In this document: positions 1-23,649 of the stretch, piece after piece
Numbering within the stretch: the first letter of the stretch is position 1
How the letters are laid out: each line of letters begins with the position of its first letter
NCBI GenBank assembly: GCA_002245135.1
Contig: NGBS01000897.1
Coordinates: forward strand, 1 to 64,000
Direction of reading: 5' to 3'
Source: Proteromonas lacertae
Taxonomy: Eukaryota
DNA length: 64,000 nt
Made by a program: the position numbers and the translations under genes
The notes under the pieces: model-generated
Told to the model about the DNA's origin: nothing
The model's database searches: none
What the model saw: only the letters and a program-made list of their open reading frames with translations

Positions 1-260
1 ATAGTTATAATATCTAAAGAAAATGAATATTTTACATTATTAAACCCTGATTGATTATATAGAAAAAGTATTAACTTTCCTTTATAATTAGTTTCTTCTA
101 GAGAATTAATAAACATCTTAATGGAAGATAATGGTAAATCTAAAGCTAATCCAAATATACATATTCTGTAATTAAGAACATATAATAGCTTCATAAATAA
201 TAATATAAAGGATATAATAGAAACATCTAAAATATATTTCATTCTTATCATTATTAGCAT
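1..260 (-). CDS. 5' part of a signal-anchored protein, probably glycosyltransferase-like (runs off window start)
   Basis: Manual translation MLIMIRMKYILDVSIISFILLFMKLLYVLNYRICIFGLALDLPLSSIKMFINSLEETNYKGKLILF..., open to base 1; N-terminal TM segment like its neighbours. Confidence 0.5.
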   Translation of the reverse strand, partial: MLIMIRMKYILDVSIISFILLFMKLLYVLNYRICIFGLALDLPLSSIKMFINSLEETNYKGKLILFLYNQSGFNNVKYSFSLDIIT

Positions 261-391
261 TTCGGTTATAAGCCATAACAATAATTTCTGATTGAAGTGA
301 TGTAGTATTTATTCAAAACCACTATGTTTTTAATAAGCCCTATTAAAATAAGTATTGTATTAATACTATACTGATTTTGCTTTTACTTGAG

Positions 392-882
392 ATAATTTTC
401 AAAATACTTGAGATTTGTTGCTAAATCCTTGAGCTTTTTTCAAGCTCTCTTTTGAAGTAAGATATTTTTCTTCCCAAGTAAATAAATAATCTATCTAAAA
501 ACACAATGTATAATACAAATAATAATTAATTAGATATCTATAAAAATACTTTTAGAATACGAAGATAAAAACTACAATTACTGTTGATATGACTGTATAA
601 ACAATTAAAACGCTTACTAACACTACTTAATTCTATTACGATGATAACTACACCTTATGCAAATTGCTCATTTTTTCATCCTATGAAATACTTGCTTTGT
701 ATAGAAAGTAGCTTTTCCATACACACTATAAGAAGTAATTAGCAACCAATCTAATTTACTACTTTATAATTCTTAGTTAAAATAACAACAATATTGTATA
801 ATTTTTTATCTTTTATAGCTTTATTAAAAATGTCTTACTTCAAATATGATCTTGAAAAAACCTCAACAATTTTGAAAATTAT
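392..882. repeat. Imperfect inverted repeat pair (possible decayed MITE/foldback)
   Basis: Reverse complement of 429-469 matches 826-866 at 35/41 by hand alignment; a further ATTTTGAAAATTAT match (392-405 vs 869-882) follows an indel. Confidence 0.55.
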
Positions 883-912
883 TGTAAAATCACTGCATTA
901 AAAATATATAGT

Positions 913-1752
913 TTAGTTTTTATAATATTCATTTCTGCACAAAAATAATTCATTATAAAGATCAAGATGATGAAGTTTTTGATAATTGTTTAACTTTTCT
1001 TCTTCATACACTTCTATCCCATAATGTTTAGTATAATTAATAAAATCATTATATATATCATATGCCTTTTCTTTTACTGGATTATTTTCTTTTCCAACAT
1101 GAAATTCAGAATATAGTATATCAAATTTTGATAATATATTTGAATTAAGTAAATGTGGAATAATATAATGTTCTTCTCCTTCAATATCGAATTTCATCAC
1201 ATTAAAATCGTTTTTGGGTATATTTTCCATAATAAATTCAATTATATTTATAACTGGCAAAGTTATATTTTTTCTTTTGCGATTATATTTGACATTAGTT
1301 TCATAGTATTTAGATTAAGCAACGTCATTTTTATCAATACTCATAACATCAATCCCACTATATGTGCTAACAATCATAGGGCAATATACATTGAAATTTA
1401 TTAAATCTGAATTTCTTTTTATATTTTCCACAACTTTATATATTCTATTACATAATAAGGGATTTGCTTCAAATATATAAGTAATAAAATTTTTAGAAAT
1501 ATTAACTAATAATTTAGGATAAGGAACTGAATACTTTATGTTATACATAATAATAATGTAAAACCATTCTACAGTATCTCCATTATTAGATCCCAAGTCA
1601 ATGTTATTACCTCTTTTCCATACATCCATGTTATTTCTTTTAACATCATTCTTAACTTTGCACATTTTTAAACTACTTTTATCTATTGTTGTTTTAGCTA
1701 TCAAAAGTAATAAAACAATTATTATTGAAAAAGCTGATGAAAAATTATACAT
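913..1752 (-). pseudogene. FkbM-family SAM methyltransferase with one in-frame stop
   Basis: IDLGSNNGD, FEANP and MKFDIEGEE motifs; ORFs 1315-1752 and 913-1260 are in the same frame, separated only by TAA at 1315-1317 (GCT TAA TCT). Confidence 0.75.
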
Positions 1753-3196
1753 AATCTAAATATTATTTCTATTAAAAACTGCATTAAAAATTCTTTACAT
1801 TCCTTTACTTTCCTAACTGCTAAGTTATTATTTAAACCAAAATTAATTCTATTATTCATATTAAGTGAATTAATTACTAATATTTTATATTTTCCAAACT
1901 TCAATAAATCTAGTTTATATTTAACACTTGTTAAATTTATTATTTTGATTGAATTCAAAGTATATTTTGGTACTTTATGATGTTTAAAAAATGACTATGC
2001 AATATAATAAACATTTATATACATTTTCTCTATATTTTTCTTTCATATATATGTTTAATTCTCTTATACTAAAGCATTTTATATAGGAACAATATTTCAT
2101 TGATAAATAGTAATCATTGCAAATACAGTGAGAGCAATTAAATTTTGGTAATATATATATGCGATTAGTAATGGTTGATAAATATAAACACATCTTAATT
2201 AAGTATTCATCATCATTAATATCATTTAATATTATATCATCTGATTGTATTATTAAATACTTATTTGTAGTTGATGAATAATATCGATTTTTATCGTATT
2301 CATATAGTAACATTTCTTTTTGTCTATATATTTTTGATTCTATTCCAATTATGTAATTATTGTGCCATTGTTATATATGAATAATCTATTCTTTATAACA
2401 ATTTAATACACTAGAATTGTCGTTGTAAAAATGTCTTTTACCATAATAAAAAAATGTAGCACCATTTGCACCAAATACTTTCAGAAATATATTTGCATGT
2501 TACTATTGATGTTCTATGCAAGACTTTATTCCAGTATATTTAATCATTTGAGAAATGTATTGTGTTAGAATATCTTATAATCTCTTTTACAAATATATAG
2601 TTTTATTATTATATCTAGTCAAACTATAATAAATTATTAAAGATAAAATACAATAAACCAGTATTCATTTCATTATTTAAATCTGTTGATGATACAATGT
2701 CAGCATTAAACAGAAGAAAGTAATTTAGAGGATTTCTAAAGAAATATACATCAACATCGCATATAAGTATATTATAATTTTGCTTTATTAAGTATAATAA
2801 TACAAACGTCTTAATCATAGTTATTTTTCCAAAATTTTTTGATCCAAAATCAGTGTTTCCATTTAATGCGTAATTCAAATTATATATAATGATATGATTC
2901 GTATATTGCTTCAGTTCATAATGAGTTTCATAATCAACTACTATAAATATATAATTACTAATATTTAAACTTTTAATTGATGTTAAGAAATAATTAATAA
3001 ATTCATCTAGATAGTGATATGTTACAACTATTGCTATTAATGTTCTATTAAGTGCATATCTATTTAACATAAATTGTATACATTCACTGTGTAATTTGCA
3101 TTTACAGCTATTAAAAGAATGTATAGTAAGAAAAAATAGTAATGAAAAGAATATACAAAAATTGATCATATTATTTTCGTTAATTATATTTAGCAT
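1722..3196 (-). pseudogene. Nucleotide-diphospho-sugar transferase (GT77-like), multi-exon, apparently disrupted
   Basis: TM anchor, ILICDVDVYFFRNP (DxD), NTG, later HNNYIIGIESKIYRQKE; the expected NDQ reads ND-stop and a frameshift is needed near 2590. 3' boundary uncertain. Confidence 0.65.
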
Positions 3197-3299
3197 TTAA
3201 AATATACATTCTAATCAATTAACATGCACAGAATAATTATATTATTTATAATTCAAGTGTTATGTATAGCGTTACTATTTACTGTAAAAAACTACTATT

Positions 3300-4346
3300 A
3301 TGTTTACTAATTATAGATCTATTTTTATTATAATATGTATATGTGTTTTATTGAATTGTTTGTTTTACTTCAATTTTCTTTATACTGTTAAAAGAATTAA
3401 TATTCTTCTAATTTTTCCAATTAAAGGTAGAAATGGTCCTGTTACATTAGCTAAATCCTACATTGACACAATTAGTATATTACAAAGGAATAAGTATATA
3501 ACTAGATTATTTAGAATCATTATAAAAAGAAATATCAGTTTTAAATTATTTCAAAATTATGCTTCTATTTGTAATAACTTGATATGGTTTTTATATCCTG
3601 ATTATTTTGAGTATAGTAGAAATATATCTTTTGCTAAAATGTTCAAGAATACTATTTATGGACCTATTGTTAGTCCTAAAAAATGGTTTAAATTTCCTAT
3701 GAAAAATACATATGAGATGAAATGGTCATATCATATAGAAAATATATTTGCATATGTAGTTCAATCTAATAGAATAAAAGATCATCTTATTAATCATTCA
3801 ACGAAGCTGAATAATATAGAAAGTAAATATTTAGTTTCTCATGGATGTTTATTAACTAAATCTTTATGCTATGTAAATTTATGGGATGAAAGAAAAATAG
3901 ATATTCTAGTTTATGTGAAATTTGCAGATGCAAATAAAGAAGAAGAATTATGTTACTTAATTAATTTATTAAATTCAACATTTACTATAAAAATTATAAG
4001 ATATGGATACCATACTCAAAATTCTTTGGCATATTTCTCCAATAATTGTAAAATACTATTATATTTTTCATTTTATGACTGTTGGCCATCATCTCTGATG
4101 GAAATGCAAAACATGGGAATTTATCCTATAGTGCAGCAGTGTGAGTTGATTGAATACTATGGAAGATGTATTCAACATTTTGATTTACATTTAAATGAGA
4201 TATTTCATATTATTAAAAATGAATTATCTAAGAAATATAACAGCAAAGACATTTCAAGTTACTACTTAAGAAGAAATAATTGTTTAGATATATTAAAATC
4301 AACCTTAATTAAGATATACAAAAGAAAACTTCTAGCTATAAATTAG
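3300..4346 (+). CDS. Putative glycosyltransferase (GT-B/GT4-like C-terminus), type II membrane protein
   Basis: 348 aa single ORF, N-terminal TM, FSFYDCWPSSLMEMQNMGIYPI resembles the GT-B donor-binding motif. Confidence 0.55.
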   Translation: MFTNYRSIFIIICICVLLNCLFYFNFLYTVKRINILLIFPIKGRNGPVTLAKSYIDTISILQRNKYITRLFRIIIKRNISFKLFQNYASICNNLIWFLYPDYFEYSRNISFAKMFKNTIYGPIVSPKKWFKFPMKNTYEMKWSYHIENIFAYVVQSNRIKDHLINHSTKLNNIESKYLVSHGCLLTKSLCYVNLWDERKIDILVYVKFADANKEEELCYLINLLNSTFTIKIIRYGYHTQNSLAYFSNNCKILLYFSFYDCWPSSLMEMQNMGIYPIVQQCELIEYYGRCIQHFDLHLNEIFHIIKNELSKKYNSKDISSYYLRRNNCLDILKSTLIKIYKRKLLAIN

Positions 4347-4348
4347 TT

Positions 4349-5131
4349 TCAATAAAGCCACAAACTACATATCCCTTTTCTTGTACTATTTATACCTATG
4401 TGTTTCATAACAGATTGGCATTTCGTACTATTCTTCCTGCCATATAGTCCTTTATAAGTAAAAGCCAATTTATACTTTTGTTTTCTAAAGAATTGAGATG
4501 TTGAATATTCATCTTTATAGTAATGTAACTTTTTTAAATTTATTGTCCTGTAAATACTTGCACCATTTGTGAAACAATATCTATTCTTGGGCGGATTTAA
4601 TATGTATAATAAATGAGTACCAATTATTGATGTTATTTCGATGCTGTAATCAATATTAACATCTGATGTTTCTCTTAATAATATACCATATACTTCATAT
4701 ACTTGTTGTAATATTAACATTGATTCCATAATAAATGAAGGATGAATTATTCTTTTTTCAACATCATGGAATACTTCCCAATCTTCTTCAAGCAATAATA
4801 CAAATTCTGTATAAATAATAGAAAAAACAATATTAAATGAGATTCCATACCCTTCAGGATTCATATATATAGAATTATAAATTTTATATTTTTTTACAAT
4901 ATCATATCTTTGAATTGTTCCCTGATCAATAAAGATTATGTTATATAATAAAGTGTTTTCATATTTAAGGATATGATGATAAAACGCAAATATTGTTCTG
5001 TTTAAATAGAATAACCTGTTACATGAAAATATGGCAATTAATAATCTACTACTTGAATTAGTATTTTTTAATTTGAAATAACAATAATTGAATATAATTG
5101 CAATAAAAAATATTATTTTTAACTGTAACAT
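4349..5131 (-). CDS. GT2-like (GT-A fold) glycosyltransferase
   Basis: TM anchor; IFSCNRLFYLNRT, FIDQGT, VLLLEEDW motifs; paralogue of 6969-7802. Confidence 0.7.
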   Translation of the reverse strand: MLQLKIIFFIAIIFNYCYFKLKNTNSSSRLLIAIFSCNRLFYLNRTIFAFYHHILKYENTLLYNIIFIDQGTIQRYDIVKKYKIYNSIYMNPEGYGISFNIVFSIIYTEFVLLLEEDWEVFHDVEKRIIHPSFIMESMLILQQVYEVYGILLRETSDVNIDYSIEITSIIGTHLLYILNPPKNRYCFTNGASIYRTINLKKLHYYKDEYSTSQFFRKQKYKLAFTYKGLYGRKNSTKCQSVMKHIGINSTRKGICSLWLY

Positions 5132-5205
5132 AATGAAAAGTAATTGAAATGTATATAATAATAATAATATTTATACATGAAAGAAAAATATGAGATATAA
5201 TTCAT

Positions 5206-6957
5206 TCATATAAAATCCATTCTCATTATTAAAGATATGTTATTATATCGATATTGTTTTTTCTTTTTTAATTTTATTTCTAGGTTTAAATCTTTACGAA
5301 GCGAAAGTGTAAAGCTAATTGTAAGATGATGTGATCCAATAAATATTGAATAATTATTTTTAAAAAGATTACATCTATTATTTGTGCAAATCCATTTTAT
5401 TGTATTAATATATTTAATTCTTTTATTTCTAATTAAAGGAAACAATATCACGCTTGCATTTATTCCTAATATTGAAAAAGTATAATTAATTCCATCTTCT
5501 GGATTAATAAAAACATCTTTATAGTGATAAGGAGTATCTTGTATAATATACAATTCATTTTCTAAATGCTTTAATAAATAATTCATAAAATTATAAAAAG
5601 AAGCTATATTCTTTATATTTGTGCAATTATAACATATTCCCAGAAAGTTTGACATAATTATATATTTTATTTCTATTACTGATATATAATATTTAAGTTT
5701 CTTATGTTCTTTAAAAAGTATATAATCTATCCAATAATGATAATATATTACCCTATAATATACTATGTTTTCATTCATTAATATATCAGGAATCCATTGC
5801 ATTATGTGTGAATCTCCCATTATAAGAACAACATTCTTGTGTCTTTTGTATTTATATTTAATAAATATTCTATTTAATCTTTTCCATTCATTATTAGCAT
5901 CTGTTCTCGTTAAATATCTTCTTAAGGAAGAAATTGAATGAATTCTTATATTTAAGAAAATAATAAAGATAAGTTCAATAAGTATAAAATAGATAATTGT
6001 GTATCTTGGATTTGAATTTAATATTACTCTATTATTTTCAATTGTATAATATAATATATGTGATATTAATATATTTAATAATAAAACAAGGCAATAGTTT
6101 GTTTCTTTATAGGAATTAAGCATATATAATATTGGATAATGAACTAAATATAAGGATAAGGATATTTTACCAATATACTGATATAAATATGATGATAGTA
6201 TATTTTCTGAGTTGCAAATAATAATTATAAATACTATAAACAAAAACAATATATTCAATTGAAAAGAAAGCTTATAAGACTTTGGATTTATATTAATTAT
6301 CAAATAAATATATAGTAATGAAAATAAATTGGATAATTTTGAGTTTATTATTTCTATTTTTAATAATGCTATAACAATACCTATAATAAATTCCCATAAT
6401 CTAGAGCTTAGCAAATAGTATAATCTATTGAAATTGTTAATAAAGTAGATTGTATATAAACATGAATACAAGAAACATATTATTATAAAATAAAAAACAT
6501 AATTATTATCTCTATTCAGAATGAAAATAGAGAAGAATACATAGTATTGTTCCTGTAAAGAATAATACCAATAATGTAAATTAAGCGATAAATTTAAAGA
6601 ATCTCCAAAATAATCTATTGCTTTAACAAAGAAATGAATATTTGAGTAACCTAAAATAGATGAAAGTAAATCACAGTATATTACCTCCAATTTGGATTTT
6701 GGAATAAAGATATATGATAGTATATAACATATAAATATAACAGTATAACCAATTGGAATAATCCTTTTTATTCTTTGTGTAATATATATAAATTTATTTA
6801 TTGAGTGTTTAGTCAGTATAGAAAAATATCCTGATAAAAGAATGAAAACATCAACTGCAAGATATCCACATTTAAATATACTAGGCAAAGAATGATAAAA
6901 ATAAATAAATAAACATGATATTCCCCTTAATCCATTAAGGTCTTTTCTTATTTTCAT
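5206..6957 (-). CDS. O-acyltransferase, acyltransferase-3 (OafA/YrhL-type) membrane domain fused to SGNH domain
   Basis: DLNGLRG, GYLAVDVFILLSGY, RIKRIIP, HYWYYSLQEQYY, RLWEF, IGKISLSLYLVHYP; C-terminal GDSH and HHLT; 583 aa, no introns needed. Confidence 0.9.
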   Translation of the reverse strand: MKIRKDLNGLRGISCLFIYFYHSLPSIFKCGYLAVDVFILLSGYFSILTKHSINKFIYITQRIKRIIPIGYTVIFICYILSYIFIPKSKLEVIYCDLLSSILGYSNIHFFVKAIDYFGDSLNLSLNLHYWYYSLQEQYYVFFSIFILNRDNNYVFYFIIICFLYSCLYTIYFINNFNRLYYLLSSRLWEFIIGIVIALLKIEIINSKLSNLFSLLYIYLIININPKSYKLSFQLNILFLFIVFIIIICNSENILSSYLYQYIGKISLSLYLVHYPILYMLNSYKETNYCLVLLLNILISHILYYTIENNRVILNSNPRYTIIYFILIELIFIIFLNIRIHSISSLRRYLTRTDANNEWKRLNRIFIKYKYKRHKNVVLIMGDSHIMQWIPDILMNENIVYYRVIYYHYWIDYILFKEHKKLKYYISVIEIKYIIMSNFLGICYNCTNIKNIASFYNFMNYLLKHLENELYIIQDTPYHYKDVFINPEDGINYTFSILGINASVILFPLIRNKRIKYINTIKWICTNNRCNLFKNNYSIFIGSHHLTISFTLSLRKDLNLEIKLKKKKQYRYNNISLIMRMDFI

Positions 6958-6968
6958 ATTTTAAACAC

Positions 6969-7802
6969 ATGTTTATAAAAAGACATTCATTTATGAAATT
7001 TTATGTTAATATATATTGTCTATTGTATTTATTTTTATCATTTATTATATTTCTTTTAAATCTAGGGGAATATGTAATAAAAAAAAATGATATATTAATA
7101 TTTCTTTTCTCTTGTAATAGAGATTATTTTTTAAATATAACACTAAAAAGTATGTTCAATCATTTGAATAACTATGATAATAATATTTATTACACATTAA
7201 TATATTCAGATAGCGGTACTATTAGCAGAGATTATTTTATAATATATTATAAACTAAATAATGTTATGTATTTTAATCCAAGTAAAGATAATTATGTTTA
7301 TAATGTCGCATTTTCAATGTTATACAAAAAATATGTTCTATTTATGGAAGATGATAGACCTTTTATAGAAAATATAGAAAAGAAAATTATTTACAAAAAC
7401 TATATTGAAGAAAGCATAGCTATAATGGAAATTAGTAAGTTATTATATGGAATAACATTTAAACCAGATATACCAGCAAAAATTAAAACAGTAACTATAA
7501 AAAGTAATTTAGGATATCATGTTTTATGTATAGTGTTTAAGCCAAAAGGAGATTATTATTTTGTTAATGGACCAACAATATACAAGACACATTATCTTAA
7601 TTTGTTAAAATATTATAAAAATGAACATAATTCAGCTTTATTTTTCAAGAATCAAAGCGTATATTATGGCTATACATACAAAAATTTAAATTGTTCTGAT
7701 GAATTCTATTCAATAAAATGTCAAAGTGTATCTCTCCATTTAGATTATAATAGAAAATTCTCCACTAATCGCAATAATCAATGTAATAATTATTTGTACT
7801 GA
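6969..7802 (+). CDS. GT2-like (GT-A fold) glycosyltransferase
   Basis: TM anchor; FSCNRDYFLNIT, YSDSGT, LFMEDDR; paralogue of 4349-5131. True start may be the second Met (6993). Confidence 0.7.
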   Translation: MFIKRHSFMKFYVNIYCLLYLFLSFIIFLLNLGEYVIKKNDILIFLFSCNRDYFLNITLKSMFNHLNNYDNNIYYTLIYSDSGTISRDYFIIYYKLNNVMYFNPSKDNYVYNVAFSMLYKKYVLFMEDDRPFIENIEKKIIYKNYIEESIAIMEISKLLYGITFKPDIPAKIKTVTIKSNLGYHVLCIVFKPKGDYYFVNGPTIYKTHYLNLLKYYKNEHNSALFFKNQSVYYGYTYKNLNCSDEFYSIKCQSVSLHLDYNRKFSTNRNNQCNNYLY

Positions 7803-7823
7803 TTAATCTAGTACTATATGTCA

Positions 7824-9287
7824 CTAGTGGCAATAACATCCACCGCTTATATTATAGTTTTTACATGAATTTGTTATAGGTATATCATGTAGTAAAGATT
7901 TATATATGTATTTTTTATTCTATTAGATTGGTATATTTAATTATACAGTGATAGGATTAGAAAAATATAATAATGTATTGTATATTTCAAATGCAGTAAC
8001 AAATTTGAATTGATTTTGATATAATGTATTTTTTAATTTATTATGTTTTATGAAAAATGTTTTTGGCATAATCTATTATATAGCTTTGAATAATATACCA
8101 TAACTAAGATAGGTAATGCTCTTTCTGCTCTTCCGAACTATATAATATATATATATATATATATAAATTATACTTCTTTTTGAGAATATTTTCCATAATG
8201 CATACCATGATCTGAAATAATGAAATTTATTGAATTATTCATAAAACCAAAATCTATATCTAGTAGAGTTATTCAATACCTTCTAAATGTTGTAAATGTT
8301 TAGCAAAATCATCATCAACTCTAGTTATTGATAAAAATGATGGTTCATGTGGTTCAATAAATGATGTATAAGAAAATATTTTATTTTCTCTTTTAGAATA
8401 ATATTTCAAAGAATCCTCTAAATATTCTAGTTGCCATTGATGTTGCTGTTTATTTCCGATGCATCTAGGTTTAGAACCATAATTATAAATCTTAATAATA
8501 TCATTGCAGCTAGGTTGAAAATTGTGATTAATATTGGAAAATACATTGTTATGGCAATAAAATGATAAATTCTTATCACATTCTGCAAGATTTGAAATAA
8601 CTATAAAATTGTTCTTTTTAAAAGATTTATATATAAATTCCTTTGGTGTTTCATTATAATAACATCCAAAAAACATTGGTTTTATATTAGGCCTTGAGTT
8701 ATAACCAATTGTATGATATAATTCAAAACTATATACATAATAATTCCTTTTTAACCTATTAATCATCCGGTTGGTTGAAAGCATTTGAGAATAAAATCGA
8801 TATCTCGATAATGCATCAAATAAATAAATGTTTATTGACAAACTATTATCCCTTACATTATTTCCTTTTGGCTTTTGAGGTATAAAATGGAATAAATATT
8901 CTATTTTATTACTACCTTTCATTATCTTATTTGACTCATGTTTTAAATTATATATATCATTTGCCTAATTTAAAATATACAATATACCTTAAAGTATTTT
9001 TTATTGCAAATTAATTTTGTATTATAAAACCAAAATTCTATAAATTTTACATTATCATTGAATTTCACTACACTTCCATTCAAAGAATATAATGTATTTG
9101 TTATGCAATTAAAATTTGTCTTTTTAGGAAATGTATAATTACTTTTTAAATAACAAGGAATTTTACAAATTTTGCTTTTTCTATTTACAGCGTTATATTT
9201 ACATAATGAATAAGATCTTTCATTTTCATTTTTGATAATTATCGCAATTGAGAATATTATTATAAAAAATATAGTAGAATATAACAT
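7824..9287 (-). CDS. DUF229-like protein (alkaline phosphatase/sulfatase superfamily), multi-exon
   Basis: FDALSR, YHTIGYNSRPN, RCIG, EPHE, SDHGMHYG, ERALP, FVTAFEIYNTL and terminal SLLHDIP..C..CYCH-stop spread over exons; integrity of 3' exons not fully resolved. Confidence 0.7.
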
Positions 9288-9326
9288 TAATATATATAAA
9301 TTTTAATTTTATAGGTAGTTAAATAT

Positions 9327-10208
9327 TTATTGTAATTTCAATTTTCTTTTAGCAACAATATTATTTTTAATGGTTTTTTTACAATCAAATTTCCTTATAA
9401 TTTCATATCCTATACTAGTAAGAATTTTAAACATCTTTTCTATTTCATATTTCCCTTCGTCATCTTTTTTTCCGCAATCTACTTCTATATGAATAAATTC
9501 AGCTACGTGTTTTTTGAAAAATTCTTTTCCTCCTTCAATTAGATCATATTCTCCACCTTCCACATCAATTTTTATCATAGATATTTTAGTAGGTATTAGT
9601 TTATCAAAATTATCTAGTTTTTTTACTTGTATTGATTCTATATATTCATTGTGTTGATAATATAAAGATGAATATCCCCAGTTATTTTTTTTTATACTCA
9701 TAATCTTCTCTTCATCATTCTTTCCAATTGCATAAGGATATATTGTAATATATTTAGAAAATTTGGGATTACTAAATGTAGTCAAACTAAAAGGAAATAA
9801 GTTATTAGGAAGTGGCTCAAATGCATATACTTTCACACCAGCATATGCAAAAACAAAAGAGCAAGATCCTATATTTGCTCCAAAATCTAAAAAAATCCCA
9901 TCTTTCTTTCCTGATAAATATATATCATATATATCTTGACACTCATGCCATATACCTTGTTTTCTAATCTTGTTTGATATATAATCATTACTTCTTATAA
10001 CTTGTGAAAATGTCATGTTTGTATAATTTGTTTTAACAAAAAAATATGCTTGTTCATTTAGTATAGTTGGAACAATAACATGTTTTACTGAAATAATTTT
10101 TTGGATTTTATCAGAAGTTATTAATAGCATAGTTCTCCTATTGTTGAATATAAAACACATAAGTACAATAATTAATATAAATATCACTTCATTCATTATC
10201 ATTATCAT
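9327..10208 (-). CDS. FkbM-family SAM-dependent methyltransferase, signal-anchored
   Basis: FLDFGANIGS, VYAFEP, IKIDVEGGE motifs; intact 293 aa ORF. Confidence 0.9.
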   Translation of the reverse strand: MIMIMNEVIFILIIVLMCFIFNNRRTMLLITSDKIQKIISVKHVIVPTILNEQAYFFVKTNYTNMTFSQVIRSNDYISNKIRKQGIWHECQDIYDIYLSGKKDGIFLDFGANIGSCSFVFAYAGVKVYAFEPLPNNLFPFSLTTFSNPKFSKYITIYPYAIGKNDEEKIMSIKKNNWGYSSLYYQHNEYIESIQVKKLDNFDKLIPTKISMIKIDVEGGEYDLIEGGKEFFKKHVAEFIHIEVDCGKKDDEGKYEIEKMFKILTSIGYEIIRKFDCKKTIKNNIVAKRKLKLQ

Positions 10209-10234
10209 AGATTTATAATATGAATAAATATATA

Positions 10235-12528
10235 CAGTCAGAACCCGATAGTTCGGAATGTCAAATCTGATGAAACGGACAAAAATTCTGAATTATAGTT
10301 TTTTTATAACTAACATATCAATTAACTATCTGTAATATTCCACATATATGTATTTTTAATGAATAAACAAAATAGGAAAAGTTGTATATTAAGCTTGTGC
10401 CTAATAGCTTTTAATTAGCATGTAGTTTACTTATGAAGCTCAGATTATTTTTAGCATTAAGAAATACAAAGATGCATAAGAATATTTAATTATAATAAAC
10501 GAAAACCCTCTGAAACCAGGTTCAATCGATTGAGAACGTGCTTAAATGTAATGAATTGATTATCTATAATAGATTCAAAGCCTCCTTCAAATCCACAATT
10601 AAACTTTCACATCCAGATGTTATTCTATTTTTTATAGAAGAATTTAAGATATTAACAGCTGAAGTTGTGTTTTATGAATATTTTATTGCTTTTTTCATTG
10701 ATGCAGCTTGATTATCAACTTGTATTTTATCTTTTAGAGATAGTTTTGCTAGCTGCTCATCGATTACTGTTACTTGGATTATATGTGGAAGATCTTCAGA
10801 TATATAAGGTAGAAGATCTGCAATAATGTTGGCTTTGTATAAAGTAGAACTAGACATAAATATATCTTTACAGTTTCTTTTACGTAAATCTTTAATGTTA
10901 TTAACTATATCATATAATTCTACATTCATATAATTATTTTCATCATCGCTTATTGGTTCAATCATCAAAAGTTGTCTTTTTAATTGTTGGAGTTGATTAT
11001 CAGAAGGAATTGTTGAATCTATCCAACAGTTGATAACTGTTGAACTTTTTAGGTTTTGATGGACAATAGTCATGAAGTAAATAGCGTCAGCAATAGTAGG
11101 GTTGTTGCCAATTTTTAATCCTCCTTGACCGTTGGGTATATCCTTAAAGGTTTTCTTTAGTAAGTCATAATGATCTATTGTAAATACACACTCTTTTAGT
11201 ATTAATGATTTATAATTACATTTCATAGATTGGATAATTCCTTGATCTAATGGTTGATATATGCTTGTCGTATTAGGTGGAAGGTATATTATTTCTATAT
11301 TATTGTAGGTAAATTGGATATTCTTTGGATGTGAAGAACAGTTGTCCATTATTAGCAGAATTTTTCTATTTGGAAGTTTTGAGTTTACTGTCGGTATAAA
11401 TACATTTGTCATCCAATAATTAAACACTTTCCCATCCATCCAGCCGTTGCATTGATGAATATAATATTTCTGAGACGAAATAAAGCAATTAGGTTTGACT
11501 GATTTTCCTATATACAGTAGGGGTATGTTTACTGTATTATTCATATTTACAGTAATAACAATAGACAACCTGGATTTAGAAATCTTACATCCACGTATAT
11601 GTTGTATATCTGATTCTGGAACAACACATGTATTCGGCAAAACCATGTAAAAAAGTCCAGTTTCGTCCATATTAAATACACATTAAATTGGATATTTATT
11701 CAGTTTTTTCCTTAAATCAGTAATATCAACATGAGGTGCAGATGAAGCTTCACCTTGTAATGAGGTTGAAAAGAGTCTCTTTCTATCCATAAAATTTTGA
11801 ATTAAGTGTTTACTGAGTTTTGGAACAGGAATGTAGTCTGCTACTAATTGATGTGCTTTAATTAATAGTATTGATGCATTTATAGGAATATGAGCTATTG
11901 GGTACATATTATATGCATTTATAAACCAGTTATATAGCTGATTTTCTAATTCTGGGTATTTAGACTTTCTTTCTCTTTTTTTGTAGAATTACGGCAGGAA
12001 GGATCCATATATTGTTGATTTACCTACTTCATATTCTGTACTAACGTTTTCAATGGTTGTTTCTTCGTTAAGTATATTATTTACTATTTCTGCTTTAGTA
12101 ACAAGTTTTTAGCGGTTCTTTCAAATTTTAGCTTGAGCCAAATGTTTTTTTCTTCTAATACTCTCAACTTCATCATCAAATTAACACAATTAAAATTCAT
12201 ATATGCATAACGCTAAATAGAGTGTAAAAGAAAAATACATTACAAGTTTTAATTGTCTAGTATTTTTGCCTCATAGTTGTTGTTAGTAATAAATTACGAA
12301 AGATGTATACAAATAGCATATAATAATACTTTGTATATTTATTTTTGTGAAAATAAGAACAGATCTTTCGTAAAGCTAATCTAATCTAAAACCATACTAA
12401 ATTTCTCAAGAATAATGTGTTTTGATGAATTATGAAGGTTAAATGAATTTATTATACACACAAAAAGCAAAAACTAGAAAAAATAAAAATTCTGAATTAA
12501 AAAAGTCCGAACTATCGGGTTCTGACTG
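10235..12528 (-). mobile_element. pogo/Tigger-type (Tc1/mariner superfamily) DNA transposon, 2294 bp
   Basis: Perfect 23-bp TIRs CAGTCAGAACCCGATAGTTCGGA (10235-10257) and its reverse complement (12506-12528), flanked by TA on both sides; internal DDE_1 transposase. Confidence 0.95.
10672..12100 (-). pseudogene. pogo/CENP-B-like transposase (HTH + DDE_1), disrupted
   Basis: KYPELENQLYNWF HTH segment; FNMDETGLFY, LLIMDNCSSH, LPPNTTSIYQPLDQGII; in-frame TAA at 11683-11685; 5' end degenerate and approximate. Confidence 0.85.
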
Positions 12529-12585
12529 TATATAAATATTATAAAATTAGCCAGTATATAATTTAAATATAATTATAGAGTATTA

Positions 12586-13509
12586 ATGTTTATGGTTTTA
12601 ACGTATAATATTATTTTTATCCCTATATTTTTAATCATTTTGTATAAATATGTATTTTTTAATTATAAACAATACAATTATATATTTGTTACATGCTACT
12701 TTGAAGATGTTAGACATGATAATAGAAAATTACATACACCACAAAGATATAGAGAATGGATATATACATTCTTTAGTAATATCAATAAACAAGTAGTAGT
12801 ATTTACAGATAATATTACATTAGTGAAACAATATAATCCTCTAAAAATTTATTATTATAAAGATATTGAAAATGTTCCTATAAATATAAACAAAACAGAT
12901 TTATATGCACAACAAATGAAAATGGAAACATGTAAATTTGAAAGAAATATAAGAACAAAAATGATATGGAATAGTAAGCTGTATTTTATGAATATGACTG
13001 CTAATGACTTTAGTTCATTAGTATATATATGGATTGATATAGGGTGTATGAGACACAACCAAATATATAATAACTTTCCTGATATTAATAAGATTAAAGA
13101 ATTATCTAATAACAATGAAATGAATTTTTTTATAATTCGTGAAAGTCCCTTTATTCCCTATAAATTATATAGCTATAAGTGTTTATATATTATTGCAACA
13201 TCTTTTTTTGGATCAAAAATTGCAATACAAAAATATTCAAAAGTATATTACAAAGTTTTAGATTATAACCTTATGAATTATATATATTTTGGTACAGAAC
13301 AGAACATGTTAGATATTATATCTTTTAAATACTTTCCTAATACATTAATATATCCATTATATCAGTCAAAGTGCAATGAAAAAAGTAATTTTTGGAAGTT
13401 TTTAAAATTCTATGCAAACTATCAATGCTCAAAAAATATTCGTGCTTTTAAATATTCAACCAACATTAGATATTTAAAATATCAAAACACAACTAAATGT
13501 GATTGCTAA
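12586..13509 (+). CDS. HtrL/YibB-like putative glycosyltransferase, signal-anchored
   Basis: FVTCYF, Y..W...F, IWNSKLYFM, YIWIDIGCMR, FFG, GTEQNML pattern recalled from HtrL/YibB-type proteins. Confidence 0.65.
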   Translation: MFMVLTYNIIFIPIFLIILYKYVFFNYKQYNYIFVTCYFEDVRHDNRKLHTPQRYREWIYTFFSNINKQVVVFTDNITLVKQYNPLKIYYYKDIENVPININKTDLYAQQMKMETCKFERNIRTKMIWNSKLYFMNMTANDFSSLVYIWIDIGCMRHNQIYNNFPDINKIKELSNNNEMNFFIIRESPFIPYKLYSYKCLYIIATSFFGSKIAIQKYSKVYYKVLDYNLMNYIYFGTEQNMLDIISFKYFPNTLIYPLYQSKCNEKSNFWKFLKFYANYQCSKNIRAFKYSTNIRYLKYQNTTKCDC

Positions 13510-13549
13510 AAGTATATATTCAATTATATATTCTATTACATATATTACA

Positions 13550-14486
13550 TTATGTGAATGAATAATTAACTGTAAATCTAATCAACCACTCCTTAGAAAT
13601 ATTATAATGCCATTCAACATGTTTTTGAATAAGCGTTTCATTATTTATAATTATTTTAATATAATTAGTTATATCTTTAATTGATTTAAAGTGACTCATG
13701 TTTATAATTGAATTAGGATGAAGTAGAAATAGATTGACAGTCTTTGGTCCAAAATATATAGGTATTGAACCTGCTAATAGACAATCAGTCAATTTTTCAG
13801 TAACATAGTCATTGTTAATAGATGATGCTTGAAATACTTTTCCTATCTTCCATAGAACCACAGAATTTTCTATAGCAATACAAAATTTGTATTGTTTCAA
13901 TAGATCTATTTTATTTGTTATAGAAACATTAATAGGCCATTTTTTATTGTTTAAATCTTTCCCATATGAATCAACTTTTATATATTTCATAAACTCCTTA
14001 ACTATATATTGCCTATTATAATATGATACTTTTTGTAAATATATAACATCTTTTCTATTTATGAAGTCTTAATGAATTTGTGAATATTATAATAAGAGTA
14101 TATAAGATATGAAATATGATATTTATTATTAAACAATCTATAATCTACTGCTATCTGATAGTTTTTATTTTTACCCTCTGTTATTTCAATCATATGCTTT
14201 GTTTGACTTAATTTTTCTGATGCCATTATTATATTTATATTATATTTTTTTTCATTTTTATTTTGTGAATATTTCCATTATATAAAACAGCATCATATTT
14301 AATTATTTTATTGCTTAGTATATTGCACTTATACATTCTTTTAGCTTTGACACAATGAAATGGACTTTTAGGTAATTCATAGAATCTATTGAATGAATTT
14401 CCTATAAGAACATTAAATTCATCACACTTTATATTTATACTAAAAATTAATAGTAAAATTAAGACAAAAAACATTATATATGTCAT
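13550..14486 (-). pseudogene. GT10 alpha-1,3/4-fucosyltransferase-like, disrupted
   Basis: VDSYGK, YKFCIAIENS, DYVTEKL..CLLAGSIPIYFG signature; the middle part (13990-14235) has stops/frameshift without an obvious GT-AG intron. Confidence 0.75.
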
Positions 14487-15460
14487 ATTTCAGCATAAGT
14501 ACATTTACCATTTATTAAAGAATAATATTTATCATAATTGTTTTTAATACCATGAATTGCTATAATTCTTCTGCTAATATTAGTTTTATGTATTTGATTC
14601 AAATTACTTATTTGTATTATTCTATATTTTATACGGCATAAAGGATATATACCTTTAGATACTAATAAACCAACATGAACATCTTCTTTGTAAATAATAG
14701 GATATATGGAAAATGAGATTTTATTTATTTCTAACACTAATTTATAGAAATATATTGAAAAAAATCCAAAGAGATAATTGGGTAATATACTGCTATTATA
14801 TAAAAAATGTGGAATGTAACTTCTTGATTTTCTATTCCTACATACTTTTTCCTTTTTTGATAATCTGCCAAATGAACAATTGTTGTTATTCATATCTTTC
14901 AAATAGCTGTATATAAGCTTAATATTTGGAACAACATCTTCATCATTCTTTATTAGGTACTTGAAAATACAATTTTCAACAATCCATTTAATCATCCATA
15001 TAGTCAATGCTGTTAAATTAAAGTAGCTTTCATGAAATGACAATTGTATAATATCGTTATATAAAACAGCTTCTTTTTGAATTAATTGATTATAGTAACG
15101 ATTATTAGATTTTTCTATAAAGAAAAAAGCTGATGAATTATATAATTGTATATCTTTTATCATTGTCATCCTAAAAATCATCCTTGTTTTAAATGAATCA
15201 CTCCTTGATGTTATTCCATATATTATCAGTGACTTATATTTCCTAATGTGTAAAGGCTTTAATATGAAATTAGACATATTAATATTTGTTATTATTAAGT
15301 CTTTCATATTATTACTATGTTTTACATATTGTTCATGATTAATATATTTTATTTCATTAAAGAATAATCTCTTCGAAGTTGATATGTTACTATAATAGAT
15401 AAAAACCAAAAAAAGGAAAATAACACATATATATACCTCTGTTATTTTATTTGTTGCCAT
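14483..15460 (-). CDS. GT31 beta-1,3-galactosyl/GlcNAc-transferase-like
   Basis: EAVLYNDIIQLSFHESYFNLT, KNDEDVVPN, PNYLFG, KEDVHVG, AIHG. Confidence 0.9.
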   Translation of the reverse strand: MATNKITEVYICVIFLFLVFIYYSNISTSKRLFFNEIKYINHEQYVKHSNNMKDLIITNINMSNFILKPLHIRKYKSLIIYGITSRSDSFKTRMIFRMTMIKDIQLYNSSAFFFIEKSNNRYYNQLIQKEAVLYNDIIQLSFHESYFNLTALTIWMIKWIVENCIFKYLIKNDEDVVPNIKLIYSYLKDMNNNNCSFGRLSKKEKVCRNRKSRSYIPHFLYNSSILPNYLFGFFSIYFYKLVLEINKISFSIYPIIYKEDVHVGLLVSKGIYPLCRIKYRIIQISNLNQIHKTNISRRIIAIHGIKNNYDKYYSLINGKCTYAEI

Positions 15461-15542
15461 TTTTGTATTTGAAAATATATCATACTCGATTTTAAAAAAT
15501 CATTTCACATTCATGTATGTATATAATTATTTTCTGTAGATT

Positions 15543-16364
15543 ATGTTATACTTTTTTTTAATATTTCTTATTCTAGCATATATGCTGCAACGTAATAAAA
15601 ATATCCATCATAAAAAAGAAAATAGCTATAATATATTTGCGTTTATTAGAGTTAAAAACGAAGTTAAAACTTTATTACAATCATTAAATAGTATTACTTC
15701 ATTTGTTTCAGATGGATTAATAGCTTATAACGAATGTGATGATGGAAGTGAAAGAATAATTATTAATTTTTGTATGAAACATAATAATTTTAAATTATTC
15801 TATTATCCATATTGGGTTATAAAAGCAGGATCATCTTATTATAGGTTTAACAAACACAAAATAAACAGATTGGATACATTTTATAATGAAATTTTAAAAA
15901 TAATACCGAAAAACAGATGGATCATGAAAATTGATTGTGATCAAATATATGACAAAGATGCAATTCTTAATTCTTTAAAACTATTATCATCAAAAAATGA
16001 CTTTCTTACATTTCCTAGAATTGAATTGCATATTAATGAAGGTGATATATGGATTAAAAAAACTAATCCAATAGTCAATCCTGGTGATCAGTTTATTTTC
16101 TTTTATGATGGATCACAATATTTTAAAATGCATATATCTAAAAATCATGCTTTTGAGTTGTTAATAATGAAAAATAGAATTATAAAGAAAGCTATTATAT
16201 CTATTTATCATTTTCCGTTATTAAAATCATATAGACATACATTAAATATATCAGAATGGGGAGTTAGATTAATTGAATGGAAAAGGAAAAGCAAAAACTA
16301 CAAATTAGCAATTAGAGTTGAGGAAATAGTTATATCTAACTTTCTTAACAATTTTATTAAATAA
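15543..16364 (+). CDS. CgtA-like beta-1,4-N-acetylgalactosaminyltransferase family protein, signal-anchored
   Basis: FAFIRVKNE..TL..SL.SI, IAYNECDDGS, FYYPY, FYN..L..IPKNRWIMKIDCDQIYD, YHFPLLK match the Campylobacter CgtA-family pattern as recalled. Confidence 0.8.
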   Translation: MLYFFLIFLILAYMLQRNKNIHHKKENSYNIFAFIRVKNEVKTLLQSLNSITSFVSDGLIAYNECDDGSERIIINFCMKHNNFKLFYYPYWVIKAGSSYYRFNKHKINRLDTFYNEILKIIPKNRWIMKIDCDQIYDKDAILNSLKLLSSKNDFLTFPRIELHINEGDIWIKKTNPIVNPGDQFIFFYDGSQYFKMHISKNHAFELLIMKNRIIKKAIISIYHFPLLKSYRHTLNISEWGVRLIEWKRKSKNYKLAIRVEEIVISNFLNNFIK

Positions 16365-16645
16365 TCTATTTATTTCATGATGAAAAAATATGGGATATTA
16401 CTTTCAAGATAACCCTTAAATGAACATTTTTCTAAGATTTTGATAGTAGTATATAATTCCATATGATTATTATATATTCAATTTAATTTCCCTATACTTA
16501 CACAACTATTCTATTTTAATCATACAAAAAAAATAAATTATGTGAATAAGAATTTAGGTCATTTAATAGACAGTGTGAAAAAATACTCGAAGAATTGTTT
16601 TAGGTTATTTGAAAATGAAAATAAGTAAAAGATAATCATTATAGC

Positions 16646-17347
16646 ATGAAATATTATATTTCATTTATTTATTGTTTAATGTTTATTATCATATATAATA
16701 ATAGTATAGCATCAAGAAAAACAATGATATGCCCTTGGAGAAGACAATATATTTCATATGATAAATCAAGAAAAGAATTATGTAATAAATATATTCATTT
16801 AATAAATAATTTGAATTTATTTTATTTTATTGCATTTGGATCTCTTCTTGGTGCAGTGAGAAATGGTGGTTTAATAAAATATGATGCTGATATTGATATT
16901 ATTGTGCCAGTATCAAAGAATCCGCATATTTTTAAATGCAATAAAGTAATTAATATTACTAATGAGAAATTCAAACAGAGAAGCGTTATATTGAATTATG
17001 ATGTTAAATTATGCAAACATAAAAGAGTATACTATAGTAAAATTCTGTATAAGTATGTTTTAAATAAATGTAAAAAATACAATTTCATAAAAGTTAGATT
17101 TACTTCTGAAGTGATAGCTTTTTATTTATCAACAGATTTATATATAGATATTTATCCAACAATTGCAAATGAATGGATTTATAGAGATTATAATATTTGT
17201 AAGTGTAAATTTTGTAATGTTTATACGTATTGCCATGTTAATTCATATTCTTTAAGCAAAACAATGTATGGAAATGACTATCTAGTCCAATTACGAAAAA
17301 AATCTAAATTAAGAACTACTCATATAAATATAACTCAAATAATATAA
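16646..17347 (+). CDS. LicD/fukutin-family phosphotransferase
   Basis: FGSLLGAVRNGGLIKYDADIDI, IDIYP, YGNDY. Confidence 0.9.
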   Translation: MKYYISFIYCLMFIIIYNNSIASRKTMICPWRRQYISYDKSRKELCNKYIHLINNLNLFYFIAFGSLLGAVRNGGLIKYDADIDIIVPVSKNPHIFKCNKVINITNEKFKQRSVILNYDVKLCKHKRVYYSKILYKYVLNKCKKYNFIKVRFTSEVIAFYLSTDLYIDIYPTIANEWIYRDYNICKCKFCNVYTYCHVNSYSLSKTMYGNDYLVQLRKKSKLRTTHINITQII

Positions 17348-17479
17348 CAATTATATAAATATATCAAAAATAATTACGTAAAAATTATGCAATTGTAGAT
17401 TACATATAAAGTAATGATGAAAAACAAGTCACTTTCCTGTTTTTGTGCAATTTTATTTATATTTTAATTTCTATGTAAT

Positions 17480-18394
17480 CTACAGCTGTTTAAACATGCA
17501 ATTATTATTTATATACCGCATAGAATTAACATTAACTCCATGAACTGCTAGATAGATATGAATATCTTTACATCTATGAAAAATATTTCTCCTTAAATAG
17601 TATTTGTTTATTTTATTAATTTCAATTTTATTTTCTTTCAAAAAAATACCTAATTGTATATCTTCTCTGTATATTAAATTAAAATGTTTGTTATTCATTG
17701 TGTTAATCAAGTTATTCCATTTTTTACATTTAGGAAAAATATAGAAATTACCAGCTACAAACTCTGGTAATGTTTCAAATGGGTATAATAAATATGGAAG
17801 ATAGTTGGAATGATTTTTATTTCTATTTGTTTTCATTGGTGGATAATAATAACCATGAATAACTATATCTTTATTATTAAATACTAAAATATACAAGTAT
17901 ATTAGCTGCAAATTCGGATAAACATCACTATCTACTCTTATTATATAATTAAAGAATTTATCATTATCTTTTGCCCAATTATATATCAAAATTGTTGATA
18001 TTGTAAGATTGTAATAACTATCTACAAATGAGAACTGGATCATATCTTCTTCTATACTATTGTATCCTTTTTCATTTTTACCTACATAGAATATTATTTT
18101 TAATTTCATAAAATCAGCAAGTTTTCCCCATGTATTTCTTATTACATCTCTCTTTTGCTTATTTATATAGCATATAGGAACAATAATAATTGCTTTTGTA
18201 AAATCATAAATTATAATGTTTTTTATGATATGGAAAGAGAAAGGTGAATGAACATCTAGTTTGTGTATGTCTAATTTAGTAAATATTTCACAATCTGAAG
18301 ATTTAATAATGTTTTTGTTTATATAGTATAAGATGATATTATAAAATAACAAAAAAATATTAAAATAACAAACAATATTAAACTTATAATTCAA
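17480..18394 (-). CDS. GT31 beta-1,3-galactosyltransferase-like
   Basis: RDVIRNTWG, FVDSYYNLT, RVDSDVYPN, PEFVAG, REDIQLG, AVHG. Start codon uncertain (ORF track uses TTG). Confidence 0.88.
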   Translation of the reverse strand: MNYKFNIVCYFNIFLLFYNIILYYINKNIIKSSDCEIFTKLDIHKLDVHSPFSFHIIKNIIIYDFTKAIIIVPICYINKQKRDVIRNTWGKLADFMKLKIIFYVGKNEKGYNSIEEDMIQFSFVDSYYNLTISTILIYNWAKDNDKFFNYIIRVDSDVYPNLQLIYLYILVFNNKDIVIHGYYYPPMKTNRNKNHSNYLPYLLYPFETLPEFVAGNFYIFPKCKKWNNLINTMNNKHFNLIYREDIQLGIFLKENKIEINKINKYYLRRNIFHRCKDIHIYLAVHGVNVNSMRYINNNCMFKQL

Positions 18395-18426
18395 ATTTTA
18401 TAAAAAGAACAGAAAATGTTCTTAAA

Positions 18427-19400
18427 TTGCAAAAAAGACCACTTATATTTCAAACACCGCCACCTTTGCCTCCACTTAACAATTCAAATAATTATGATGA
18501 AGATAGGCCATATGATAATGATAATGATGATAATATGCCTATTTACCCAAGAAAACATAGAACTATCAAACAAACATCGCACAAAATTTTTGGAGGAATT
18601 GTTGTGTGACGTTTGTCAGAGTATGCCGTTTGTTTGCCAGACATTTTTAGAACAAACTAAATGCATATTCTTACTTATTTAGATGAAAAATATTTACACA
18701 TTTACAAATTGGTGATATGAAAATCAATGATATAGTAATGCTATCAATATTTGAAATTCAATTTATTCCAATACAATAACATTTAGAACCAGTTGAATAA
18801 CCATTAGTAATAAAGAATATAAGCAAAGATCCAATTGGGTTACATTGTATTGCATATGATTTACAATATAATGTTAACAGAACAAGTAGCGTAGTAGAAG
18901 AAAGATCAACTTTACCAATGAATATGTAGATAAGAAGAAAAGTGAAAAATCAATGAAGTAATTTGAAGAACAATAGTAATGGCAATTTAGAAACAAGCTG
19001 ATACTTTGAGATTAGGATATGGTGGAATAATGAGAGATATGAAAAAGAAAAAGGATTAGTGTTTTGAATTATATTGGAAGGATAGATTAAATTATGGTAA
19101 TGCAATGATTCATTGATTATCTCCGATTATCGAGGAATTCCTAATGAAGAAATTTCCATAGATGAAATATATAAATTCAAAATCAAACATATAAATTAAA
19201 TGAAAAGAGAGAATTAGTTACTGAGATAATATTTACAATAAAAGAAGTTACATTAAATGAAACAGAGTTTGTTTGGGATAATTTGTACTGGTACATTTAT
19301 ATATGTTTATGAATATATGGAATTGATTACTATTCAACTGATGAAGTTGATAATGTCATTATGATTTTGTTGAACAGCTTTAAAATTTCTATAAATGATG
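18427..19400 (+). pseudogene. Degenerate coding relic, unknown family
   Basis: Protein-like frame (QTPPPLPP..., RLSEYAVCLPDIFRTN, ISKDPIGLHCIAYDLQY) broken by repeated stops; boundaries approximate. Confidence 0.3.
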
Positions 19401-23230: not shown

Positions 23231-23610
23231 CCTAATTATAAATATAGAATAATAAGTAAATAAAAGATATATAGGCTAATAAAGATTAGAACAATTTTGT
23301 AGATTTCAATCACATTTTCTTGCATAACCTAAATAATGAGTAAATTGTTATTTTACCAATAAAATTACTCAAATTGTCTGATAATATTCTATCTTCACAT
23401 GGTTTTGTTTCTGAATCTCTCATGTTCATATAATAACATAAATCTAGGAATGATAATTGCAACTATCAGTTTGATGGATTATATGGTGTAGTTTTCTTCA
23501 TTTAACGTGAATAGACTAACGCCTTAAACAGCATAACCCCACTAGAGTAATTACAGAATATATTGCCATATTTGATGTAAATTCCTTTCAGTTATACAAA
23601 TATATCAAAT

Positions 23611-23617
<7 letters not shown>

Positions 23618-23646: not shown

Positions 23647-23649
<3 letters not shown>

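Follow-up and report, generated by a model that had tools for sequence, protein, structure and literature searches.

In eukaryotes the genes for Golgi glycosyltransferases are as a rule dispersed over the genome; the small outlier chromosome (SOC) of the Mamiellales, tiny marine green algae, is the best-documented exception. Considered here is an island of glycan-related genes at the left end of a 64-kb stretch of DNA assigned to Proteromonas lacertae (positions 1 to 64,000 of contig NGBS01000897.1, assembly GCA_002245135.1; this whole stretch is referred to below as the window). Its first 18.4 kb hold 15 glycan-related genes, about one per kb, from mostly unrelated families. The reading preferred here, at a probability of about one half, is that these are some 15 native membrane-anchored glycan enzymes, an exchangeable set for a surface or secreted glycan that evolves by gain, decay and the action of transposons.

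The SOC, of which chromosome 19 of Ostreococcus tauri is an example, is described as rich in glycosyltransferases, methyltransferases (including FkbM), GT92 and sugar-modifying genes (PMC5082852). In the same account it also carries transposon-related genes and putative prokaryote-derived genes, is fast-evolving and has a link to virus resistance (PMC5082852). Among known systems it is the nearest analogue of the island. A smaller eukaryotic case is the galactosaminogalactan cluster of Aspergillus and Metarhizium, reported as five co-regulated genes for one extracellular polysaccharide (PMC4817252, PMC8224951).

Gene content of the island

Glycan-related genes account for approximately 15 of 16 units between 1 and 18.4 kb and approximately two of 26 to the right of it, the latter being a pair of GT92 genes (Fisher p = 2e-8, with approximate gene counts and the comparison made within the 64-kb window). 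The initial annotation had described a dense, many-family run of about 16 such genes with no housekeeping gene among them, and at a count of 15 both points hold, as do its statements that almost all products carry an N-terminal membrane anchor and that the run extends past the window start. All 15 products, and both GT92 proteins, have a hydrophobic stretch of 19 residues among their first ~60. The leftmost gene, represented by its 5' part (3-259 within an open reading frame, ORF, at 3-308, minus strand; probable ATG near 259), begins with such an anchor and runs off the window start. The further claim that the genes are mostly single-exon is partly borne out: nine of the 15 are uninterrupted from ATG to stop, the DUF229 gene has five introns, the GT77, FkbM1 and GT10 genes are broken or probably so, and the second GT31 gene (GT31b) lacks an ATG ahead of its anchor. 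At least nine retain full ORFs with catalytic motifs. Nearby housekeeping genes, by comparison, are split every few hundred bases. An all-against-all BLASTP comparison found just two paralogous pairs inside the island, the EED- and EDD-motif proteins described below (36% identity) and the two GT31 proteins (29% identity). Because these pairs are only two and distant, tandem duplication cannot explain the island, as had been argued from the diversity of its families.

Ten genes in 1-18.4 kb match Pfam, in eight families (FkbM twice, GT77, AT3, DUF229, GT10, GT31 twice, CgtA-like and LicD). For these ten the earlier family calls stand, and an HtrL/YibB assignment has indirect support, from transitive homology; one GT-B-like and two GT2-like labels have no sequence match behind them. 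NCBIfam agrees for FkbM and gives partial matches for AT3 and LicD. Of the two FkbM-type methyltransferase genes, FkbM2 (9327-10208, minus strand) is intact and anchored, and scores of 61.2 bits against PF05050, 40 bits against PF05575 and 72.8 bits against TIGR01444 place its product in the FkbM/RfbT type. The AT3 acyltransferase gene (5206-6957, minus strand; PF01757, 70 bits) encodes a putative O-acetyltransferase with a C-terminal extension. It had been labeled AT3-SGNH, of which the AT3 half is secure; the SGNH half scores 16.7 bits, below the cut-off of 27, with a GDSH block visible after the AT3 part. The partial NCBIfam match here is to a SucT-like model, and a PDB sequence search with this protein gave no match. 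The two galactosyltransferase-family genes belong to GT31, both lying above the PF01762 cut-off of 23 bits with DxD-type motifs (DED and DSD) visible: the first (14483-15460, minus strand) is intact and anchored and scores 79.4 bits, and GT31b (17480-18397, minus strand) scores 82.5 bits. The CgtA-like gene (15543-16364, plus strand), of the beta-1,4-GalNAc-transferase family, is intact with a short N-terminal anchor and reaches 111.3 bits against PF06306 (cut-off 21); its alignment with homologues (A2) has 53 invariant columns, including NEC/NDCDDGSE and IKID.D blocks. Its neighbor (16646-17347, plus strand) is an intact, anchored, LicD-family phosphotransferase-like gene, at 34.1 bits against PF04991 (cut-off 22.6) over profile positions 5-100 of 227, with a partial NCBIfam match to Mf1. 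The DUF229 gene (7824-9287, minus strand), of the alkaline-phosphatase superfamily, is likewise intact, encoding ~442 aa from an ATG at 9287 to a stop near 7824 across introns of 23, 26, 36, 26 and 27 nt, with a PF02995 match of 49.5 bits on exon 2 (8269-8964).

Five island ORFs have no Pfam match even at E <= 5 (3-308, 3300-4346, 4349-5131, 6969-7802 and 12586-13509). The last of these, on the plus strand, encodes a 307-aa anchored protein with five full-length relatives at 56-65% identity in other assemblies; neither it nor these five match Pfam directly. A profile of the six retrieved 560 proteins at E <= 0.001 from a library of 1.84 billion proteins. Among the best 30 non-self matches of the 150 listed, 18 carry HtrL_YibB (PF09612, E <= 0.001), 15 of them above the cut-off; of the others, one is fused to GT11 and 11 gave no domain match. 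The Atlas look-alikes of the protein are HtrL_YibB clusters, and a PF09612 search of four bacterial genomes and 14 controls gave no match. Its predicted model is poor (predicted local distance difference test score, pLDDT, 46.9) and has a best VIA Z of 6.1, below the tool's trust level, with GT-A and nucleotidyltransferase folds among the rows. By transitive homology it is likely a distant relative of the HtrL_YibB family and a GT-A-like transferase.

The 348-aa anchored protein encoded at 3300-4346 (plus strand) has no Pfam, NCBIfam or PDB sequence match. Its language-model feature look-alikes in Atlas are GT4/Glycos_transf_1 clusters (scores 0.96-0.97), and it is possibly a GT-B/GT4-like transferase. 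The two paralogous anchored proteins, one of 260 aa with an EED motif (4349-5131, minus strand) and one of 277 aa with an EDD motif (6969-7802, plus strand), have no Pfam match, and the profile of their alignment (A1) has none in the PDB. Full-length relatives of the EDD protein are present in other assemblies at 38-66% identity. Its predicted model is poor (pLDDT 54.7) with a best VIA Z of 4.2, again below the trust level, and a Foldseek comparison with the PDB gave nothing at E <= 0.001. Comparison by hhalign of A1 and of a further alignment, A3, with the CgtA alignment indicated no relation (probability 0.2 for A1); no relative came up when metagenomes were scanned with profiles A1 and A3, and word-indexed homologue searches returned 4, 4 and 5 matches. 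The full-length relatives of the EDD and HtrL-like proteins elsewhere suggest that both have been kept as genes, which supports the preferred reading.

Island genes lie on both strands, in convergent and divergent pairs and with no operon-like order. Four pairs are head to head, with 11-103 nt between start codons; FkbM2 and the HtrL-like gene would be ~80 nt apart if the transposon between them were removed. Divergent starts of the AT3 and EDD genes are separated by 11 nt, convergent ends of the 348-aa and EED genes by 2 nt, and those of the EDD and DUF229 genes by ~21 nt, with tandem genes 39-74 nt apart. Promoters and terminators must overlap adjoining coding sequence in such compacted gaps (6957-6969, 4346-4349 and 7802-7824), and spacers this short point to control regions that overlap or are shared. 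The interval between the leftmost gene and FkbM1 (309-912) is unusually long for the island, with 600 nt and no ORF.

Decayed or probably broken genes, transposons and the rest of the window

As to integrity, one island gene is clearly decayed (GT77), two are probably broken (FkbM1 and GT10) and one is ambiguous (GT31b). Of the GT77 domain (Nucleotid_trans, PF03407) the truncated gene (1984-3196, readable at 2624-3196, minus strand) has the N-terminal half, with a match to profile positions 3-116 of 208. Downstream there are a frame change and four in-frame stops, a read-through of 1987-2574 gave no Pfam signal, and a single weak intron solution was found. FkbM1 (913-1755, minus strand) has an in-frame TAA at 1315-1317, inside the domain and aligned to a coding position of FkbM2, and exceeds the cut-off of 22.7 bits, at 22.8, only with this codon read through as X and not as an open frame. 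Nine in-frame GT-AG intron solutions exist, each removing homologous residues, and the gene is probably a pseudogene. The GT10 fucosyltransferase-like gene (13550-14486, minus strand) is spread over three frames; its C-terminal domain scores 78.7 bits (PF00852, on 13550-14068), and no complete two-domain ORF was found. The interval of the first break (14235-14277) contains a run of eight A residues (A8) and that of the second (14059-14068) has no homopolymer. There are 41 two-intron GT-AG solutions, with products of just 196-255 aa, short for a two-domain GT10. The gene is probably frameshifted, and the A8 run is a possible site of slippage or of a homopolymer sequencing error. GT31b has no ATG upstream of its anchor; in four solutions a 5' mini-exon within 18546-18644 is joined to it by removal of a 164-193-nt intron, and through such an exon the gene may be intact.

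Two DNA transposons, one inside the island and one beside it, were overlooked in the initial annotation. The first is a pogo/Tc5-like element of 2.3 kb (10223-12540, minus strand) whose ends are intact, with 35-nt terminal inverted repeats (10223-10257 and 12506-12540, 94% complementary). It lies between the divergent FkbM2 and HtrL-like genes, 15 nt from the start codon of the former and 46 nt from the start of the latter, and its transposase ORF matches DDE_1 (109 bits) and HTH_Tnp_Tc5, with one in-frame TAA (11683-11685). The second element, of 4.6 kb, lies at the right edge of the island (19653-24267, minus strand). Between inverted arms of 80 nt (80% complementary) it carries an rve-integrase ORF (21980-23275, PF00665) and an ORF of 465 aa (20439-21836). 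PDB matches of the latter are weak (E 0.11-2.1) and all to CE-clan (Ulp1-like) proteases, and on this similarity it possibly encodes a protease of that clan. The combination of integrase and possible CE-clan protease is reminiscent of Ginger-type elements.

The window comes from a eukaryote whose genome is compact, with 22% GC, and whose introns are very short. In 2-kb windows GC ranges from 20 to 29% across the 64 kb. The genetic code is the standard one, and a ciliate code is ruled out, with TAA, TAG and TGA alike terminating long ORFs. Spliceosomal introns of 23-40 nt with ends of the form GTAT(A/T)...(A/T)TAG occur throughout the window (for example 8965-8987, 25916-25944 and 36325-36358). 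Eleven housekeeping junctions were inspected: six have a complete GTAT...TAG intron of ~30-100 nt, three have the acceptor side only, one needs a 148-nt GTAA...AAG intron and one is ambiguous. An automated survey of ORF bridging was noisy and served for six clear short introns, not for intron counts; clear bridging introns of 29-39 nt include 25916-25944, 28881-28910 and 36325-36358. Among animals, ultra-short introns are given in one account as reported only in myxobolids and Dicyema (PMC13644364). The GC contents cited for Henneguya (29%; PMC13644364) and Dicyema (36.7%; PMC6736024) exceed that of the window, so a myxobolid or Dicyema identity does not fit, and a protist source, as supposed in the initial annotation, is plausible. 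Rfam and tRNA scans of the whole window gave no match.

Genes in the right-hand 45 kb include Frag1/DRAM, CNOT11, a TYW3-kelch-TYW2 fusion, RPC82, a MAP kinase, RPS4, MMACHC, a cyclin, Myb, two RhoGEF-PH-FYVE genes, an exportin-like gene and kinases. The highest scores of RPS4 are with vertebrate chains (330 bits), ahead of fungi (~313), plants (~300-305) and Tetrahymena (243). The fusion appears to be a single multi-intron gene (~34600-37752) that joins TYW3, kelch propeller and TYW2 domains (wybutosine synthesis). On the minus strand at 52528-56169, the two RhoGEF-PH-FYVE (FGD-like) genes are neighbors with many tiny introns, likely a tandem duplicate. In the region 62577-62602, ORFs 62118-62579 and 62580-63164 adjoin in the same frame with one TGA between them; the TGA could be removed by a 23-nt GTTAT...TTAG intron or could be a true stop between two genes. 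The tandem GT92 genes (38491-41198), 20 kb from the island among these housekeeping genes, are intron-less, N-terminally anchored and 72% identical overall. Long identical stretches in their catalytic half suggest recent gene conversion.

Origin and competing explanations

The island is native to this eukaryote. Relative synonymous codon usage (RSCU) in its ORFs correlates with that in the housekeeping ORFs at r = 0.93, GC at third codon positions (GC3) is 0.162 against 0.175, and GC in 2-kb windows is 0.20-0.28 against 0.20-0.29 elsewhere in the 64 kb. In the DUF229 gene the introns belong to the GTAT...TAG type seen in the housekeeping genes, and the GT92 pair in the housekeeping part is built like the island genes. 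In content the island combines eukaryote-type Golgi transferases (GT31, GT10, GT77, DUF229) and families familiar chiefly from the glycan loci of bacteria or viruses, here CgtA-like, FkbM/RfbT, LicD, AT3 with a GDSH motif and HtrL-like. For the CgtA-like protein, 66 prokaryotic loci were found, nearly all in Helicobacter and Campylobacter, with others in Rickettsiales, Spirochaetaceae and Fusobacteriaceae. Identities are mostly ~30-42% (range 26-46% over the best segment), and the lowest E-value (7e-39, 35% identity) belongs to a metagenome-assembled genome from the Rickettsiales. Since the bacterial CgtA relatives are mostly ~30-42% identical and codon usage is host-like, any lateral origin would be old and fully ameliorated. 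The proposal of lateral acquisition followed by retargeting to the secretory pathway is upheld in part: bacterial-type members are present and their anchors fit retargeting, and any transfer would be old.

If the preferred reading is right, the products, which are type-II-anchored (the AT3 protein multi-pass), would act in the secretory pathway (Golgi or endoplasmic reticulum). The GT31, GT10, CgtA-like, GT77 and HtrL-like proteins, with the anchored proteins of unassigned family, would work as sugar transferases in the Golgi lumen, the AT3 protein would put on O-acetyl groups and the FkbM proteins O-methyl groups, and the LicD and DUF229 proteins would add or handle phospho-substituents, all on one common glycan. 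Bacterial-type members would have entered laterally long ago and then gained signal anchors, and the island likely evolves through gene gain, decay and transposon activity. Several points weigh against this. A single glycan and co-expression are presumed from the co-location of the genes, and the glycan roles of the leftmost, 348-aa, EED and EDD genes are putative. Pfam and NCBIfam searches of the window turned up neither a nucleotide-sugar transporter nor a gene for sugar-nucleotide synthesis, a flippase or a polymerase. No k-mer upstream of the genes is commoner than expected by chance: the most widely shared 6-, 7- and 8-mers are present in 6, 4 and 3 of 16 upstream regions, against mean maxima of 6.0, 4.2 and 3.1 in random windows. 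With one of the 15 genes decayed and up to three more possibly so, relaxed selection could be at work instead of use, and gene decay and transposons are as compatible with rapid turnover as with function. The GT92 pair may mean that glycosyltransferases are simply abundant genome-wide. The calls of FkbM1, GT10 and GT31b as broken are themselves dependent on gene models, with GT-AG solutions available for each.

Some of these same observations would suit a permissive dumping ground, a recombination- or transposon-prone region, perhaps subtelomere-like, in which dispensable, acquired or retro-copied genes decay as neighbors by history, with no pathway or co-regulated unit. This is possible, if somewhat doubtful. 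Two transposons in or at the island, the truncated GT77, the FkbM1 stop and the GT10 frame breaks speak for it, as do the use of both strands in no operon-like order, the lack of a common upstream motif and the lack of transport or sugar-activation genes in the window; the scarcity of introns in these genes, in a genome otherwise full of them, accords with an acquired or retro-copied origin. A random pile should, however, include non-glycan genes, and ~15 of 16 units here are glycan-related or similarly anchored. The nine or more full ORFs with catalytic motifs, and the intact relatives of the EDD and HtrL-like proteins elsewhere (55-66% identity), also count against it. A more ambitious version of the preferred reading would make the island a contingency or serotype locus of a eukaryote, in which a set of Golgi glycan enzymes, some of them of old bacterial origin, differs among strains and is reshuffled by transposon insertion, decay and possibly homopolymer slippage; this would alter the coat and with it susceptibility to viruses, predators or hosts. 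Slippage enters because one of the GT10 break intervals holds the A8 run. As a whole this version is unlikely.

Unlikely too is a strict analogue of a bacterial O-antigen, lipooligosaccharide (LOS) or capsule locus, a single co-regulated cassette whose alleles define serotypes. The initial annotation had stressed this resemblance. The enzyme mix bears it out, with transferases beside O-acetyl, O-methyl and phospho-substituent enzymes; the four head-to-head pairs could share promoters, and the family of the CgtA-like gene sits in Campylobacter and Helicobacter LOS loci. It does not extend to flippase, polymerase, ABC exporter, initiating transferase and sugar-nucleotide genes, none of which was found in the window, or to an operon layout, both strands being used and some members broken. 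The remnant of an integrated giant virus (Nucleocytoviricota) carrying a block of glycan genes is very unlikely. Clustered glycan genes are described from giant viruses (PMC9614988), the island genes are intron-poor, and the HtrL_YibB clusters that resemble the 307-aa protein in Atlas are mostly labeled Nucleocytoviricota. Against this, no viral hallmark family is among the Pfam matches in the window, scans of viral contigs with the HtrL-like and CgtA-like proteins and with profiles A1 and A3 found no relative, the DUF229 gene has five host-type introns, and codon usage equals that of the host. Most improbable of all is a join, chimeric or with contaminant DNA, made in assembly between the island and the part with the housekeeping genes, which the initial annotation had named as an outcome that would undo it. 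In dinucleotide relative abundance, 1-18.4 kb stands at a distance of 81-82 from two right-hand segments, which are themselves 20 apart, and a join would fall near a transposon; the deviant signature may instead reflect proteins rich in I, Y and F. A join is unlikely because the DUF229 introns, codon usage, GC3 and build of the GT92 genes, which lie inside the housekeeping part, are all host-like, and GC is similar on the two sides.

What the island would mean depends on which of these readings holds. As a cluster it is a second, independent eukaryotic case of glycan-gene clustering, in a genome that is compact, has tiny introns and is 22% GC. Were it strain-variable and co-expressed, surface-glycan gene clustering would look like a recurrent eukaryotic answer to cell-surface arms races, and the 18 kb would be a test bed for the refitting of CgtA-like, FkbM, LicD, AT3 and HtrL-like enzymes with anchors. 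If the contingency-locus reading were true, the principle of the Mamiellales "immunity chromosome" would have arisen independently in an unrelated AT-rich lineage. As a decay zone only, it would be an ordinary by-product of gene turnover.

Comparison with known systems

With bacterial O-antigen, LOS and capsule loci the island shares adjacent, unrelated transferases together with AT3, FkbM/RfbT and LicD genes, and a member of the CgtA family, which belongs to the LOS loci of Campylobacter and Helicobacter; several glycosyltransferases and substituent enzymes are adjacent within 18.4 kb, as in those loci. It differs in having no Wzx/Wzy, ABC/Kps exporter or initiating transferase among all window ORFs searched with Pfam and NCBIfam (the island extends left of the window), no sugar-nucleotide genes and no one-strand operon. 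Its products have eukaryotic-style N-terminal anchors, and the DUF229 gene has spliceosomal introns. Giant-virus glycan clusters are similarly dense, intron-less and AT-rich arrays of transferase and sugar-modifying genes, with the HtrL_YibB-like Atlas clusters mostly labeled Nucleocytoviricota. The island departs from them in its host-type introns and host codon usage, and in having neither viral hallmarks nor relatives in the viral contigs scanned.

The fungal galactosaminogalactan cluster is also a set of co-located polysaccharide genes in a eukaryote. As described, it is a defined pathway of five genes for which co-regulation and phenotype have been shown, whereas the island has ~15 genes from many transferase families and is known from sequence.

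The Mamiellales SOC is described as a whole chromosome of 100-290 kb, with GC clearly below that of the rest of a GC-rich genome. The island is smaller (at least 18 kb), adjoins housekeeping genes and has nearly the same GC3 as they do (0.162 vs 0.175). Sugar transporters and epimerases or dehydratases are listed for the SOC, and none was found in the island window. For Ostreococcus the link to virus resistance and the variability among strains have been demonstrated; the island is known here from its sequence alone. In other respects the two are alike: the island has the same functional mix, with transposons and decaying members, and glycan genes are over-represented in it relative to the rest of the window.

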